From a virus (lineage: Duplodnaviria; Heunggongvirae; Uroviricota; Caudoviricetes), in IMG/VR virus record IMGVR_UViG_2582580984_000004: a stretch of 7,298 bases of DNA, one strand, 5' to 3'. Positions 774 through 7,298 of the stretch are shown here, in pieces. Position numbers and translations under genes: made by a program. Within the stretch, counting starts at the first letter, position 1. Each line of letters starts with the position of its first letter. The notes under the pieces are model-generated. The model did not search any database, had not been told where the DNA came from, and worked only from the letters and a program-made list of their open reading frames with translations.

Positions 774-1175
774 TTATCCCTGATAAAATGCCAGTATGCG
801 CTGCATAACTTCACTCATCCGGCACTCGCGACAGATTATGTTTAGGCGACTGTCGTAGCGACGTATTTCTCCATCAGGTAACGACCAGATAAGGTCCGGA
901 TCAACCACAGCTGTTTTCTTCACCTTTGCCCTCGATAGTTTTTTGCGGGCGTTTTGCCAGTCCTTACGCGCCTGTTCAGACGGGAATAACCCGTAGCCGG
1001 AGTTGTATACATCGCCACTGGCTACCAGCTCTCTGGCAAGAACGCTCATCAGATATCTAGTCGCACCTGTTTTAGCTTCCAGTTGCCGTAACGTCTCACG
1101 ACCGCTCTGGCGCACGAGTTCCACCACCTGCCCTTTAATTTTTTCCCGCTCTTCTTGTGTAAAAACTTTTGCCAC
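774..1175 (-). CDS. hypothetical protein, 133 aa, last gene of the minus-strand replication operon
   Basis: ORF-track entry; GTG start at 1175-1173 preceded by AAGGGGGA; 40-bp gap from the upstream initiator gene; no family recognised from sequence. Confidence 0.55.
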   Translation of the reverse strand: MAKVFTQEEREKIKGQVVELVRQSGRETLRQLEAKTGATRYLMSVLARELVASGDVYNSGYGLFPSEQARKDWQNARKKLSRAKVKKTAVVDPDLIWSLPDGEIRRYDSRLNIICRECRMSEVMQRILAFYQG

Positions 1176-1215: not shown

Positions 1216-2181
1216 TTATCCTCTGAAACCAGGCGGAATTTCTGTATCCGGTTCAGAAATATGATTCATACAACGCTGTACAGGTGAACGTCCCAGGCGG
1301 ATGACCAGTTCGTCCCATTTTTCGCGGAGTTTTGACGGGCTCATGATGTTTTTTACCCAGAATTGATCTCGCTGTACCCGACCAAACATTTCGCAAATTT
1401 GTCTGTGGCTTCTGCCATCCAGCATCCGCATTGTGCGCACGTCATTGGCCCAGGCTGTCCAGTTAGGCTCTTTTGGTCGCATGATCTCTCCATCGTCGCT
1501 GGCAGCCTGTTCGTAAAGGTTCACGATCCGCCCCCAAATCCACTGCGCACACGCCAAATCCTCCCTGCTACCCCACTGGCGTTTTTTCGCACTAAACACA
1601 ACCGCGTCGGGGTTCCGGGTTAAAAAATCCTGTTCAGCGGTCTGCGGGTCCGGTTGCGAAGCTTCCGGACGAAAAGTGTTTTTATTCTCTGTAGTAATCT
1701 CTGTTGTATTCTCTGTAAGATCATCAGGCCATTTTGACCCGATGACATTGGGTCGTTTTGAACCAATGGAGCGTTTCATTTTGACCTCTTCCATCGTGTC
1801 ATTTTGACCTGATGGAGCGGCGCATTTTAAACCGATGGATTCGCTCAATTTGCCACCATCTAAAAGCTCGCTCCCGTAGTTGATCGTGTAGAAATTGGTC
1901 ATATCGCGCTTTGATTTATTGAGCTTTTCACAACGCAAAAGCCCCAGCGTTTTCAGACTTGCAAACGCGCGCTTTAACGTTGACTCTGACCAGAATGGGA
2001 ACTGTTCCAGCCATTGTTCCGTTGTGTTGTAAATCCAGCGAACACCATCACATTCCATGCCGGAATTGGTATCTCTCAACCAGTAATGCAACTGCTGCAA
2101 CACAATGGCTTCATTTAAGCCAATCTTCATCGCAAGCTGTGTGTTTATAACCAGTGGGCGTTCAGCAAAAAGAAGGCTCAT
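1216..2181 (-). CDS. phage replication initiator (lambda O-like replisome organizer), 321 aa from ATG at 2181
   Basis: N-terminal winged-helix-like region (LNEAIVLQQLHYWL...IYNTTEQWLEQFPFWSESTLKRAFASLKTLGLL) typical of phage replisome organizers. The middle of the gene carries tandem iterons, as the lambda O gene carries ori-lambda. The ORF track starts at a TTG at 2235; the ATG at 2181 with a GGATGGAA upstream is the more plausible start. Confidence 0.7.
   Translation of the reverse strand: MSLLFAERPLVINTQLAMKIGLNEAIVLQQLHYWLRDTNSGMECDGVRWIYNTTEQWLEQFPFWSESTLKRAFASLKTLGLLRCEKLNKSKRDMTNFYTINYGSELLDGGKLSESIGLKCAAPSGQNDTMEEVKMKRSIGSKRPNVIGSKWPDDLTENTTEITTENKNTFRPEASQPDPQTAEQDFLTRNPDAVVFSAKKRQWGSREDLACAQWIWGRIVNLYEQAASDDGEIMRPKEPNWTAWANDVRTMRMLDGRSHRQICEMFGRVQRDQFWVKNIMSPSKLREKWDELVIRLGRSPVQRCMNHISEPDTEIPPGFRG
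1729..1842. repeat. five tandem ~22-bp iterons (consensus tcATTTTGACCnGATGGagcg) inside the initiator gene; putative prophage ori
   Basis: Repeat copies begin near 1729, 1754, 1776, 1799 and 1821; the third copy carries CCATC in place of GATGG. Adjacent at 1686-1721 are three 12-bp repeats (TCTCTGT-nnnnn) in an AT-richer stretch. Confidence 0.65.
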
Positions 2182-2683
2182 AATTCCATCCAGCTTTTTG
2201 TTGGTATTGCTGTCGATACGCAAGTTTGAAAGCAATTGCTTTTTCTATAAGTTCGTCAGTTTCACGATCCACTACGGCAGGATCAGCAAAAAGCAGTCCG
2301 GACTCCACCACATCGCCATATTCTTTGTTTAACCCGGCGATCATGTACGTGATGCTTTTTCCGTCACTAATTTCACGATACAACCTGAAATCATTAATCC
2401 GGATAGCCTCCATAATTGCAGGCACTAGCGCCGTGAACTTTTCACGCTTATCCCTAGTGTCGATAGCCTTCCAGCGTTCGAATATCTTCACTCGATTAAC
2501 GCCAAGCGCTCGCTGATCAACCGCGCCACCTTCATCTGTGACACGCTGAACATCGATGTTCGGGCGCTCTTTCAAAGCCCAGAATGCTTCAGTGATTAAT
2601 ATCGTCGCCTGCTCCTGTGTCATTCCTGGTCGACATATCCAGGCATCCAGAGCCTCACGAGCCTGTTCAGGAGTGATTTTCAT
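2162..2683 (-). CDS. hypothetical protein, 173 aa, between the Cro-like gene and the replication initiator (the position occupied by YdaT/CII-type genes in related prophages)
   Basis: ORF-track entry with ATG at 2683-2681; overlaps the end of the upstream gene by 17 nt and the start of the initiator by 20 nt, a compact operon layout; no family recognised from sequence. Confidence 0.55.
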   Translation of the reverse strand: MKITPEQAREALDAWICRPGMTQEQATILITEAFWALKERPNIDVQRVTDEGGAVDQRALGVNRVKIFERWKAIDTRDKREKFTALVPAIMEAIRINDFRLYREISDGKSITYMIAGLNKEYGDVVESGLLFADPAVVDRETDELIEKAIAFKLAYRQQYQQKAGWNYEPSFC

Positions 2684-2894
2684 TGTTCAACCGCCCCGCC
2701 CGCTTCGTCTTACGATATTCGTCATAAACCTTGGGATCATACAGAAGCTCGCCGCCAGATGCCTCCTGTAGACGCATCGCGCGACCTTCAGGAACCAGCT
2801 CTTGCCATTGAGAAACAGCAGATGGGTCAACGCCAGCAGCTTTCGCTACTTTGGCTTTCGTACCGTAAAAATTAATTACGTCTGATTTAAACAT
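2667..2894 (-). CDS. dicC: Cro-type small DNA-binding regulator (DicC/YdaS-like), 75 aa
   Basis: ATG at 2894-2892 preceded by a strong SD (GGAGGT, ~4 nt spacing). Divergent from the DicA-like repressor across a ~77-bp operator region. The ORF-track start at 2921 is a TTG extension and lacks an SD. The symbol is assigned from position and size, not from a confirmed sequence match. Confidence 0.7.
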   Translation of the reverse strand: MFKSDVINFYGTKAKVAKAAGVDPSAVSQWQELVPEGRAMRLQEASGGELLYDPKVYDEYRKTKRAGRLNNENHS

Positions 2895-2971
2895 CGCACC
2901 TCCAATATTGAGTTTTCTCAATGCTAATCACTCAAGGAATCTCAAGTCAAGGGTTATTAAGATATCTAAAT
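2895..2971. promoter_or_regulatory. divergent control region between the dicC-like and dicA-like genes, with operator-like repeats
   Basis: Inverted-repeat operator ATTGAG-tttt-CTCAAT at 2907-2922; CTCAAG direct repeats at 2931-2936 and 2941-2946, plus TCAAGG at 2947-2952; candidate -35 TTGACT (minus strand, 2950-2945) for the leftward promoter. Confidence 0.55.
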
Positions 2972-4545: not shown

Positions 4546-4603
4546 TTTCTGGTGACGTTTGGCGGTATCAGTTTTACTCCGTGACTGCTCTGCCGCCCTT
4601 TTT
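4546..4603 (+). ncRNA. dicF: DicF small regulatory RNA (antisense regulator of ftsZ), about 53 nt plus U-tail
   Basis: Sequence tttctggtgacgtttggcggtatcagttttactccgtgactgctctgccgccc-ttttt matches DicF as I recall it; it lies just upstream of dicB as in Qin and ends in a GC-stem plus U-run terminator. Ends are approximate. Confidence 0.75.
4561..4603 (+). terminator. DicF 3' intrinsic terminator
   Basis: GGCGG (4561-4565) pairs with CCGCC (4593-4597), with an inner CAGT/ACTG pairing, followed by cTTTTT (4598-4603). Confidence 0.65.
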
Positions 4604-4772: not shown

Positions 4773-4961
4773 ATGGAAACGTTATTACCAAACGTTAATA
4801 CGTCTGAAGGTTGTTTTGAAATTGGTGTCACTATCAGTAACCCTGTATTTACTGAAGATGCCATTAACAAGAGAAAACACGAACGGAAGCTATTAAATAA
4901 AATATGCATTCTTTCAATGTTGGCCCGTTTACGTCCGATACAAAAAGGATGCTGGCAATGA
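4773..4961 (+). CDS. dicB: DicB cell-division inhibitor (MinC-dependent), 62 aa
   Basis: ATG at 4773 preceded by GAGGA (4761-4765, 7 nt spacing). Translation METLLPNVNTSEGCFEIGVTISNPVFTEDAINKRKHERKLLNKICILSMLARLRPIQKGCWQ matches DicB in length and, as far as I recall, in sequence. The ORF-track start at 4668 is an upstream extension. Confidence 0.8.
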   Translation: METLLPNVNTSEGCFEIGVTISNPVFTEDAINKRKHERKLLNKICILSMLARLRPIQKGCWQ

Positions 4962-5241: not shown

Positions 5242-7298
5242 ATGAGTAAAGTCTTTATTTGCGCCGCCATTCCGGACGAACAGGCAATAAAGGAAGAAGG
5301 TGCCGTCGCTGTAGCCACTGCCATTGAAGCCGGTGATGAACGTCGCGCCCGCGCAAAATTTCACTGGCAATTCCTGGAGCATTATCCGGCTGCTCAGGAC
5401 TGCGCTTATAAATTTCTTGTCTGCGAGGATAAACCCGGTATACCCCGCCCTGCCCTCGATTCCTGGGATGCTGAATATATGCAGGAAAACCGCTGGGATG
5501 AGGCGTCTGCTTCCTTTGTCCCGGTCGAGACTGAATCCGATCCGATGAACGTCACTTTTGACAACCTAGCCCCTGAAGTACAGAACGCTGTCATGGTTAA
5601 GTTCGACACATGTGAAAACATCACCGTTGATATGGTTATTAGCGCACAGGAATTGTTGCAGGAAGACATGGCAACATTCGACGGACATATCGTTGAAGCG
5701 TTGATGAAAATGCCAGAAGTTAACGCCATGTATCCGGAGCTTAAGTTGCACGCCATTGGGTGGGTTAAGCATAAATGTAAGCCTGGTGCCAAATGGCCCG
5801 AAATTCAGGCAGAGATGCGCATCTGGAAAAAACGTCGCGAAGGTGAACGCAAGGAAGCCGGAAAATACACGTCTGTTGTTGATCTCGCCCGCGCCAGAGC
5901 CAATCAACAGCACACTGAAAATTCAACAGGAAAAATCAACCCGGTCATTGCTGCCATTCATCGCGAATACAAGCAGACATGGAAAACACTGGATGACGAA
6001 CTGGCCTACGCTCTCTGGCCTGGTGATGTGGATGCCGGAAACATTGACGGCAGCATCCATCGCTGGGCAAAAAATGAAGTTATCGACAACGACCGCGAAG
6101 ACTGGAAGCGTATCTCGGCATCAATGCGCAAACAGCCTGATGCCCTTCGCTACGACCGCCAGACTATTTTTGGCCTTGTCCGTGAACGTCCGATCGACAT
6201 TCACAAAGACCCTGTGGCACTGAACAAATACATTACTGAATACCTGACTACAAAGGGCGTGTTTGAAGATGAAGGAACAAATCAGAGCGCAACTGATACT
6301 CTCTCGTCGCCAGTACCAGAAACTGATGCAGTGGAAACGGCAATTCCGGGCAACGAAAAAACCGAATGCAAAGTGGAAGTCGAACCATCTGTAGAGCGTG
6401 AGGGGCCGTTCTACTTCCTCTTCACCGACAAGGATGGCGAAAAATACGGTCGCGCAAACAAACTTTCTGGTCTGGAAAAAGCACTAGCCTTGGGAGCTAC
6501 GGAAATCACAAAAGAGGAATACTTCGCACGTAAAAACGGCACGTACTCAGGTTCACAACAAAATACTGGTGCATCTGACACGACCGCACAACCAGAGCCG
6601 GTAAAAGTTACCGCTGACGAAGTAAACAAAATTATGCAGGCAGCCAATATCAGCCAGCCTGACGCCGATAAGTTGCTTGCTGCCTCTCGCGGAGAATTTG
6701 TTGCAGGGATTAGCGACCCGAATGATCCGAAATGGGTAAAGGGGATTGAAACCCGCGATTCTGTAAACCAGAACCAGCAAGAAACGGAACAGAACGACCA
6801 GAAAGCGGAACAAAACAGCCCAAATACGCAACAAAACGAGCCAGAAACGAAACAACCTGAGCCAGTAGCGCAACAGGAACCGGAAAAAGTCTGCACCGCC
6901 TGCGGTCAAAGCGGTGGCGGCAACTGCCCTGATTGTGGCGCGGTGATGGGTGACGCAACATACCAGGAAACATTCGATGAAGAGAATCAGGTTGAAGTTC
7001 AGGAAAATGATCCGAAGGAAATGGAAGGCGCTGAACATCCACACAAGGAGAATGCTGGTAGCGCTCAGGATCACGCCAGCGATAGTGAAACTGGCGAGAC
7101 GGCAGATCCCTTAATTACGATGAACGGTCATCACGTTATCACATCCACCAGCAGGACGTGTGACCATCTAATGATCGACCTTGAAACCATGGGAAAAAAT
7201 CCTGATGCCCCGATTATCTCAATAGGTGCAATATTTTTCGATCCGCAAACCGGAGATATGGGACCGGAATTTAGTAAGACTATCGATCATACCCCGCC
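5242..7298 (+). CDS. large RecE-like / YdfE-like prophage recombination-exonuclease protein, N-terminal 685 codons (3' end outside window)
   Basis: ATG at 5242 preceded by GAGGT (5228-5232); the frame is open to the window end. Contains a segment [31 protein letters not shown] that I associate with RecE-family N-terminal regions, a Q/E/N-rich low-complexity linker, a CxxC-x8-CxxC zinc ribbon (6883-6927), and at the end [10 protein letters not shown]...[10 protein letters not shown], resembling exonuclease motif I of DnaQ/DEDD 3'-5' exonucleases. Not in the ORF track because no stop occurs within the window. Confidence 0.8.
   Translation, partial: [685 protein letters not shown]

Follow-up and report, generated by a model that had tools for sequence, protein, structure and literature searches.

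A probable replication origin within the initiator gene of a Qin/mEp460-type lambdoid prophage, and the 12-nt repeats beside its iterons

We analyzed a 7,298-nt stretch of viral DNA (Caudoviricetes; IMG/VR record IMGVR_UViG_2582580984_000004), which we will call the window. It corresponds to the early region of a Qin/mEp460-type lambdoid prophage from Escherichia coli, and its minus strand encodes an O-like replication initiator of 321 amino acids (aa). The initiator gene contains two sets of tandem repeats: an array of 23-nt iterons and, just 3' of the array on the coding strand, three 12-nt units of ACAGAGAnTAnn (the 12-mers). We think it probable (roughly 0.78, from sequence comparisons) that window 1681-1860 is the cis-acting replication origin of this prophage, and that it lies within the linker-coding part of its own initiator gene. 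Origins of this type, with iterons and an opening element inside the initiator gene, are already known. The present origin appears to be uncharacterised; a literature search for mEp460 together with origin terms returned nothing on it. Most of the interest of the finding lies in the 12-mers. Below, we list the initiator gene and the repeats within it.

1216-2181, minus strand: O-like replication initiator gene, 321 aa, with its ATG at 2181 and its stop codon at 1216-1218 (open reading frame [ORF] and translation; phrog_391)
1838-1860, minus strand: iteron 1, degenerate, GATGGTGGCAAATTGAGCGAATC; 15/23 to consensus, in the 23-nt register
1815-1837, minus strand: iteron 2, CATCGGTTTAAAATGCGCCGCTC; 18/23 to consensus, in repeat families D1/D2
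1792-1814, minus strand: iteron 3, CATCAGGTCAAAATGACACGATG, a near-perfect dyad; 20/23 to consensus, 16/23 self-complementary, exact core match
1769-1791, minus strand: iteron 4, GAAGAGGTCAAAATGAAACGCTC, with degenerate outer arms; 16/23 to consensus, core with one mismatch
1746-1768, minus strand: iteron 5, CATTGGTTCAAAACGACCCAATG; 18/23 to consensus, 16/23 self-complementary
1722-1744, minus strand: iteron 6, CATCGGGTCAAAATGGCCTGATG, which adjoins the 12-mers; 20/23 to consensus, 16/23 self-complementary
1705-1716, 1693-1704, and 1681-1692, minus strand: the three 12-mer units ACAGAGAATACA, ACAGAGATTACT, and ACAGAGAATAAA, which encode TENTTEITTENK

An initial annotation of the window had proposed five iterons of about 22 bp at 1729-1842. 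The tandem iterons are real, but we count six units of 23 nt on the coding strand: five good ones at 1722-1837 and a degenerate sixth that extends the array to 1860. Their consensus is CATCGGGTCAAAATGACCCGATC. A better copy of the degenerate unit, GAGGTCAAAGTGAAC, is found at the equivalent position in mEp460_4F5, and across 68 homologous genes conservation is highest for iteron 6. Every unit is a dyad of the form CATCnGGTCA-AAA-TGACCnGATG. An inverted CCATC submotif had been attributed to the third iteron in particular; the inversion is only apparent and follows from the dyad symmetry, with CATC being the left arm of the neighbor of the degenerate-arm unit at 1769-1791.

Both repeat sets exist and are non-random. 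The 12-nt iteron core GGTCAAAATGAC has five matches in the window with at most two mismatches, and four of these lie within 1728-1809. Shuffled sequences gave 0.80 +/- 0.94 matches, and none of 200 shuffles reached five. The autocorrelation at a lag of 23 nt over 1722-1860 is 0.54, with a peak of 0.57; codon shuffles of the gene gave 0.40 +/- 0.017 with a maximum of 0.47, and 0 of 300 reached the observed value. A repeat search recovered families spaced by 23 nt over 1722-1851. Tandem Repeats Finder reported the 12-mers but not the iterons, because the divergence of the iterons exceeds its threshold.

The three 12-mers occupy 1681-1716, after a 5-nt spacer from iteron 6. Tandem Repeats Finder placed them at 1686-1717 (period 12, 2.7 copies) and a separate repeat search found three copies at 1683-1718. 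The G+C content at 1680-1719 is 0.30, which is the lowest of the gene. The proposal of three 12-bp repeats in an AT-richer stretch after the iterons thus holds, with exact units. A+T makes up 69% of the block, and purines make up 72% of its coding strand; the AT-rich tract of lambda is 70% purine. No stretch of the gene is less stable or more skewed toward purines. A GATC (Dam) site at 1719-1722 lies exactly between the last iteron and the first 12-mer. In many enterobacterial relatives the block is preceded by GATCTT or GATCCT, which is not the case in other phyla.

The repeats fill gene nt 322-501, or aa 108-167; of these, aa 108-154 come from the iterons and aa 156-167 from the 12-mers. An AlphaFold2 model of the initiator has three parts, which are a winged helix (residues 12-100), a disordered segment (residues 109-175), and a helical domain (residues 183-295). 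The model was built from a shallow alignment and has a mean predicted local distance difference test score (pLDDT) of 58, with the domains at 65-85 and the disordered segment at 23-30. Because the repeats encode residues 108-167 and the predicted disorder spans 109-175, the origin DNA sits exactly in the linker between the two folded domains, in agreement with the earlier placement of the repeats in the linker-coding middle of the gene.

The iterons cannot be explained as a peptide repeat, since their period of 23 nt is not a multiple of three. To compare the conservation of codon positions, we used 68 distinct homologous genes with 38-100% protein identity. These loci were retrieved via the 12-mers, so the values for the 12-mers are biased, while those for the iterons are not. 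The conservation at codon positions 1, 2, and 3 was:

N-domain: 0.86, 0.91, and 0.69
Iterons: 0.86, 0.86, and 0.84
12-mers: 0.995, 0.94, and 0.99
C-part: 0.80, 0.84, and 0.67

The folded domains have the usual coding pattern, with the third position least conserved, and the iteron region does not. Also, amino-acid conservation is lower in the iteron region (0.74) than in the N-domain (0.84). These patterns indicate that the repeats are selected as DNA, not as protein. Had the repeats been absent from homologs with a conserved linker, the origin would have been in doubt; the homologs keep the repeats as DNA even where the linker peptide changes.

The iterons co-vary with the N-domain, which is what a pairing of protein and site specificity predicts. 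Identity between iteron consensus sequences is 0.91 for pairs of loci with at least 90% identity of their N-domains and 0.47 for pairs without a BLAST hit (Spearman correlation of 0.71 between iteron and N-domain identity over 150 loci). Relatives at about 40% N-domain identity have the same design with changed arms, for instance GGTCAAAATGACC, GGGCAAATTGCCC, and GGACAATTTGTCC.

The initiator itself matches phrog_391 ("replication initiation O-like") with E = 1e-92. Its gene is 100% identical to a gene of phage mEp460_ev081, which is a recombinant phage genome, and the matching records label the protein as either "phage replication protein O" or "Primosomal protein I." The parts of the gene on either side of the linker are:

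1861-2181, minus strand: coding region of the N-terminal winged-helix domain, aa 1-107, with helices at 14-37, 54-60, and 66-78 and a beta-hairpin wing at 82-100
1297-1635, minus strand: coding region of the helical C-terminal domain, aa 183-295, a homolog of the lambda O C-domain, with its helices at pLDDT 65-85
1219-1278, minus strand: the last 20 codons, for QRCMNHISEPDTEIPPGFRG, similar to the very end of E. coli DnaT

The C-terminal domain is, by BLASTP, homologous to the C-domain of lambda O (34% identity over 148 aa, E = 3e-28). The N-terminal winged-helix domain is presumed to be the iteron binder. No Pfam family was found for the whole initiator or for either half; in particular, neither RepA_N nor Phage_rep_O was found. 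The top Foldseek matches of the predicted N-domain are a Rep-DNA complex and initiator N-domains, 5kbj, 4pql, and 4pt7, and they are weak (E of 0.02-0.07; template modeling scores of 0.5-0.56 on the target). We take these structures to be RepA from the staphylococcal plasmids pSK41 and pTZ2162, so the best structural matches, weak as they are, are to RepA_N-type plasmid initiators from Gram-positive bacteria. RepA_N plasmids have iterons inside the rep gene, and their initiators combine a conserved winged-helix N-terminus with a variable, host-specific C-terminal domain. They differ from the present system in being plasmid and not phage replicons.

The last 20 residues match DnaT residues 160-179 (6aep, 2ru8, and 9zbt_D; E of 2.5e-4 to 8e-4 with a 27-aa query, using phmmer against PDB sequences). 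The match was also found with the whole initiator as the query, and it was the only match in the PDB sequence search of the initiator. Neither the N-terminal nor the C-terminal domain of DnaT is present, as the match is confined to the last 20 residues; the label "Primosomal protein I" arises from this tail alone. DnaT is thought to recruit DnaB/DnaC in replication restart (PMC13377028). The tail may be a host-mimicking recruitment motif. Among related loci, the DnaT-like tail is present on two different types of C-domain.

An arrangement of iterons plus an AT-rich region is the layout of lambdoid origins, in which the AT-rich tract is needed for unwinding (PMC7466680). The annotated iterons of lambda lie inside O with a spacing of 20-24 bp, followed by the AT-rich tract; the spacing here is 23 bp, and there are six dyad-symmetric units at about two helical turns. 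In an alignment, the last iteron of lambda falls on iteron 6 and the AT-rich tract of lambda falls on the 12-mers. In an intermediate locus (L010), the 12-mers give way to lambda's own downstream sequence. Other likenesses are that the iterons are dyads with an A-rich center (TCCCTCAAAACGAGGGA in lambda and GGTCAAAATGACC here), that the origin lies in the inter-domain part of the initiator gene, that a purine-skewed AT-rich tract immediately follows the last iteron, that the C-domains are homologous, and that the gene order is shared (cro, cII, O, ..., ren; cro-like, cII-like, O-like, and ren-like on the minus strand of the window, downstream of a pR-like promoter match). The initial comparison with the iterons-then-AT-rich architecture of ori-lambda is therefore upheld on every architectural point. 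The origins of the Shiga toxin (Stx) phages 933W and P27 have six iterons, as here.

There are also clear differences from lambda. The iteron sequence is another one, and the N-domain lacks a detectable sequence relation to that of lambda O. Instead of an AT-rich tract there are three conserved 12-mers, of which lambda retains a degenerate remnant at most. There is no P gene after the initiator gene, and the initiator has a DnaT-like tail, which is absent from lambda O.

In the mechanism that we propose, dimers of the N-terminal winged-helix domain would bind the six iterons and wrap them into an O-some-like complex. Stress from this complex, together with transcription from the pR-like promoter, would then open the 36-bp block of three ACAGAGAnTAnn units, as its position and the ori-lambda analogy suggest. 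The lambda-O-like C-terminal domain would then recruit the host helicase. We propose that the 12-mers serve as the element for strand opening and helicase loading, because they have low stability, lie a few bases from the last iteron, and take the place of lambda's unwinding tract.

The 12-mers are not peculiar to this prophage. At least 120 viral contigs carry the exact 23-mer ACAGAGAATACAACAGAGATTAC. Among the viral contigs listed, it is always in one frame, inside an ORF of about 300 aa, and just 3' of iteron arrays, which are of at least 10 unrelated sequence types. It is flanked by at least five BLAST clusters of N-domains and at least seven of C-domains. One viral contig (L058) is a natural recombinant, in which an N-domain and iterons of the Stx-phage type are joined to a C-part of the window type, and the switch is inside the 12-mer block.

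BLAST searches with the block found 128-137 annotated phage records, and nearly all of the genes are named replication initiation O-like, DnaD-like, or replisome organizer. The hosts of these phages include Acinetobacter, Staphylococcus, Bacillus, Klebsiella, Escherichia, Pseudomonas, and Vibrio, as well as Erwinia, Burkholderia, Xanthomonas, Geobacillus, Lactobacillus, and Synechococcus. In a collection with one genome per species, ACAGAGAnTACnACAGAGAnTACnACAGAG is found at 107 places, while about 3e-4 would be expected by chance (our own arithmetic, for 26 fixed bases in 596 gigabases). These carriers include Gammaproteobacteria, Desulfuromonas, Campylobacterota, Bacilli, Clostridia, Negativicutes, Halanaerobiales, Bacteroidota, Chloroflexota, Cyanobacteria, and a Gracilibacteria genome. 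At 79 of the 107 places, there are upstream repeats with a spacing of about 23 or 46 bp. The full cassette layout of the window, with at least two tandem copies of ACAGAGAnTACn on the coding strand, just 3' of repeats spaced by about 23 bp, and within an initiator ORF of about 300 aa, recurs in 78 of 99 viral contexts of the ACAGAGA type (among the matches listed).

To separate constraint on the DNA from constraint on the peptide, we scanned viral contigs with a codon-agnostic pattern, which was fixed only at the positions dictated by the amino acids T-E-x-T. We sorted the contexts solely by the presence of upstream repeats of about 23 bp and by the geometry of the ORF; 34 distinct iteron types passed. 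Among the matches listed for these types, the third base of the first threonine codon is A in 100/102 and the third base of the glutamate codon is G in 102/102. In the variable (third) codon, the first base is A in 68/68 and the third base is T in 65/68, while the middle base, which is non-synonymous, is free (A in 33, T in 23, C in 9, and G in 3). Matches outside of such contexts use all codons. With the silent sites fixed and the replacement site free, the pattern is the reverse of a constraint on the peptide.

The motif holds in contigs of 29-63% G+C, and the block keeps its orientation and its distance of a few bases relative to the last iteron. In 59% of 184 distinct contexts, no other 36-nt segment within +/-400 nt is less stable than the block (mean z of +1.6). 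Together, these comparisons indicate that the 12-mer block is a DNA motif with almost no variation, found alongside an initiator superfamily over many bacterial phyla.

A related cassette is found outside of any initiator gene. The Bacillus plasmid pBSG3 (L220, NC_014104) is a rolling-circle plasmid with its own Rep gene elsewhere. At about 746-840, it has three CCTACAGGGAAA repeats at a spacing of 23 bp and then three ACAGAGATTACT units, and no long ORF spans them. The cassette can be aligned to the central part of the gene for the replication initiator in Bacillus phage PM1 (L328, 880-1060), with indels that break the frame. By this alignment, pBSG3 carries a non-coding, frame-broken copy of the PM1 iterons and 12-mers. 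The plasmid may have captured a phage origin, either to hitch-hike on the phage or to titrate its initiator. About five sibling Bacillus plasmids of 8.4-8.9 kb carry at least the 12-mer block.

What do the 12-mers do? Easy melting does not require high sequence conservation, so melting alone cannot explain an invariant sequence, and something constant must read the 12-mers. Since the 12-mer is constant while the iterons, the recognition surface, and the helicase-recruiting domain change, the reader would be invariant. One candidate is a conserved surface of the winged-helix initiator that acts on single-stranded DNA. Another candidate is a universal component of the host replisome, such as the replicative helicase or primase. 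More speculatively, the 12-mers could be start sites for primase (there is a CTG on the template strand of each unit), their length could correspond to the 12-nt footprint of the DnaB hexamer, or they could be related to the nick site of pMV158, TACTACG, which they resemble. We consider it possible, at a little under even odds, that ACAGAGAnTACn, in 2-5 tandem copies 3' of iterons, is an undescribed, sequence-specific core element of widespread phage, prophage, and plasmid origins, portable and conserved as DNA over more than 10 phyla. We found no description of the 12-mer, either as motif strings or as a peptide, in the literature that we searched, which covered few subscription journals, so an earlier account is possible.

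Two better-known elements are similar in kind. The 13-mers of E. coli oriC and of the oriV of plasmid RK2 are also short tandem repeats in a low-stability region beside the initiator sites, and the initiator binds them in single-stranded form and in a strand-specific way. Their period and sequence differ (13-mers such as GATCTnTTnTTTT, as opposed to the 12-mer ACAGAGAnTACn), and they are clade-specific, while the 12-mer is kept across phyla and iteron specificities. DnaA-trios are another conserved, repeated, strand-specific element that adjoins initiator boxes; they are widely conserved in bacteria and mark the engagement of single-stranded DNA. DnaA-trios have a period of 3 nt and are read by the AAA+ domain of DnaA, whereas here the repeat is of 12 nt with another sequence, and the initiators have no ATPase domain.

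Several observations weigh against the origin or against the role of the 12-mers. The N-domain has no detectable similarity to lambda O (no BLAST alignment to residues 1-130) or to any Pfam family, and the matches to Rep folds are weak (E of 0.02-0.07) and were obtained with a model whose mean pLDDT is 58. No P, DnaC-like, or DnaB-like gene adjoins the initiator gene in the window or in two matching records, which leaves the helicase-loading step unexplained. After 40 nt, the downstream neighbor is a DUF977/Ren-like gene, although the C-domain is of the lambda O type, which pairs with P in lambda. Similarly, no lambda-P homolog is found downstream in 29 related loci that have both a lambda-like C-domain and a DnaT-like tail. 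We cannot credit the tail with replacing P from this comparison: loci with the tail have no lambda-P homolog or Walker-A protein downstream, and neither do most of the loci without it, so the comparison does not discriminate. There is no cluster of DnaA boxes in the window, and the one relaxed match is far from the origin and at chance level. As for the 12-mers, describing them only as an unwinding element leaves their fixed sequence unexplained. Finally, the loci are related by descent: 140 of the 150 carriers' N-domains belong to a single BLAST cluster, and hhalign links several of the small clusters that remain to the main ones with probabilities of 93-96%. Because the N-domains form one superfamily, the counts are not of independent events, and the matches from viral contigs are not random samples.

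Could the repeats be merely a repetitive, disordered protein linker, with no role in cis, and with the origin elsewhere or a dead relic of a cryptic prophage? In favor of this, the 12-mers are read in frame as TENTTEITTEN, the region is predicted to be disordered, defects are common in Qin-type prophages, and an IS2 element ends in the window, at 1-371. We consider this extremely unlikely, as a peptide repeat is incompatible with the 23-nt period, the third codon positions of the iterons are as conserved as the first and second while the amino acids vary, and in the 12-mers it is the silent sites that are fixed and a replacement site that is free. In addition, there is a non-coding copy of the cassette. 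Nor does the prophage look like a relic: the initiator gene is intact and has an identical counterpart in a deposited phage genome, and at least 80% of the window is found in 632 complete E. coli genomes. It is also very unlikely that the iteron array is mainly a site for regulation or competition (autoregulation, a roadblock to transcription, or titration or exclusion of related phages) and not a replication start. The initiator-binding repeats of iteron plasmids do serve in control as well, and the orphan cassette of iterons and 12-mers on the plasmid could titrate a phage initiator, but a control role is compatible with origin function, and the combination of iterons, a low-stability block, an O-like gene, and a lambda-O C-domain is the layout of a proven origin type.

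Two other explanations concern the 12-mers. The block might be kept mainly as a recombination joint between a specificity module (the N-domain and iterons) and a helicase-recruiting C-domain, with no role in the origin. It does join at least five clusters of N-domains to at least seven clusters of C-domains, and L058 switches types inside it. Weak selection for evolvability, though, would not fix synonymous sites across phyla and across 29-63% G+C, and it would not account for the fixed distance and orientation relative to the last iteron. The block also survives in a non-coding plasmid cassette, where there is no C-domain to exchange, and it holds the place of lambda's unwinding tract. We consider this explanation quite unlikely. 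Alternatively, the 12-mers might act via RNA: a purine-rich transcript would form a stable R-loop on the pyrimidine-rich template strand, which would open the origin or yield a primer upon processing. This would explain both the fixed sequence and the orientation, which is always that of the initiator gene. The purine content of the block (72%, compared to 70% for the lambda tract) and its location downstream of a pR-like promoter match fit this proposal, and the firing of the lambda origin requires nearby transcription. However, none of our results points to an R-loop, purine richness by itself does not require an invariant ACAGAGA..TAC, and the pBSG3 cassette has no evident gene or promoter context, so we view the RNA mechanism as unlikely.

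The rest of the window is consistent with a Qin-type early region. Window 352-7288 matches 632 complete E. coli genomes at about 98.7% identity, and a place that covers at least 80% of the whole window was found in 632 of 5,426 complete genomes. The plus strand carries a dicA-like repressor, dicB, ydfD, and an exonuclease (annotation of the matching record). The other features around the initiator gene are:

2921-2950, minus strand: pR-like sigma-70 promoter match, TTGACT-18-TAGCAT (consensus scan, 9/12 positions)
2667-2894, minus strand: cro-like dicC gene (annotation of the matching record)
2162-2683, minus strand: YdaT/cII-like gene (annotation of the matching record)
774-1175, minus strand: DUF977/Ren-like gene (annotation of the matching record; phrog_142, E = 1.9e-44)
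1-371: end of an IS2 (IS3-family) element, which disrupts a hypothetical gene of 340 aa; other E. coli strains have this gene intact

The scan gave one consensus promoter match on the gene's strand, at 2950-2921, where shuffles give 2.6 +/- 1.6 matches per region. It sits just upstream of the cro-like dicC gene, and a transcript from it would cross the cro-like and cII-like genes and the origin. The consensus scan found no promoter within the 12-mers. It had been suggested that the nearby IS2 insertion might have affected the replication module. We do not think so: the insertion hits another gene, beyond the Ren-like gene, and about 850 bp separate the IS2 end from the initiator gene's own end, and about 1.3 kb separate it from the repeats. 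Both the gene and the repeats are intact.

We also considered a DnaA-dependent origin, and dropped it because the lone relaxed match to the DnaA box is at chance level. No Rfam family was found at the origin. Elsewhere in the window, the DicF small RNA is found at 4547-4598 on the plus strand (RF00039, 76.7 bits), as expected for the dicB region of a Qin-type prophage. A 13-nt unit, AAACGTTAATACC, is present in 1.9 tandem copies at 4777-4801, at the start of dicB. A 21-nt repeat is present in five tandem copies at 6772-6875 on the plus strand, in frame within the RecE-like exonuclease gene. This last repeat encodes a low-complexity stretch rich in Q, E, N, and P, so it is a repeat at the level of the peptide, in contrast to the iterons. 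The cryptic prophages Qin/Kim and Rac share this neighborhood (dicC, a dicA-like repressor, DicF RNA, dicB, ydfD, and genes of the YdaT and DUF977 families). The Qin prophage of K-12 is not known to retain its replication genes, whereas the initiator gene and the origin are intact in the window.

If our reading is correct, it provides a testable map of the origin of a common type of E. coli prophage, with six sites for the initiator, a site of opening, and an initiator without a partner loader. It is still not settled how iteron origins open their strands and position the helicase, and a short motif that stays constant over phyla, at origins that otherwise evolve fast, would be a handle on the conserved step. 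The 12-mer may also be a simple signature for predicting phage origins in genomes and metagenomes. Finally, a constant 12-mer would explain how the halves of initiators are shuffled and how plasmids borrow the origins of phages.

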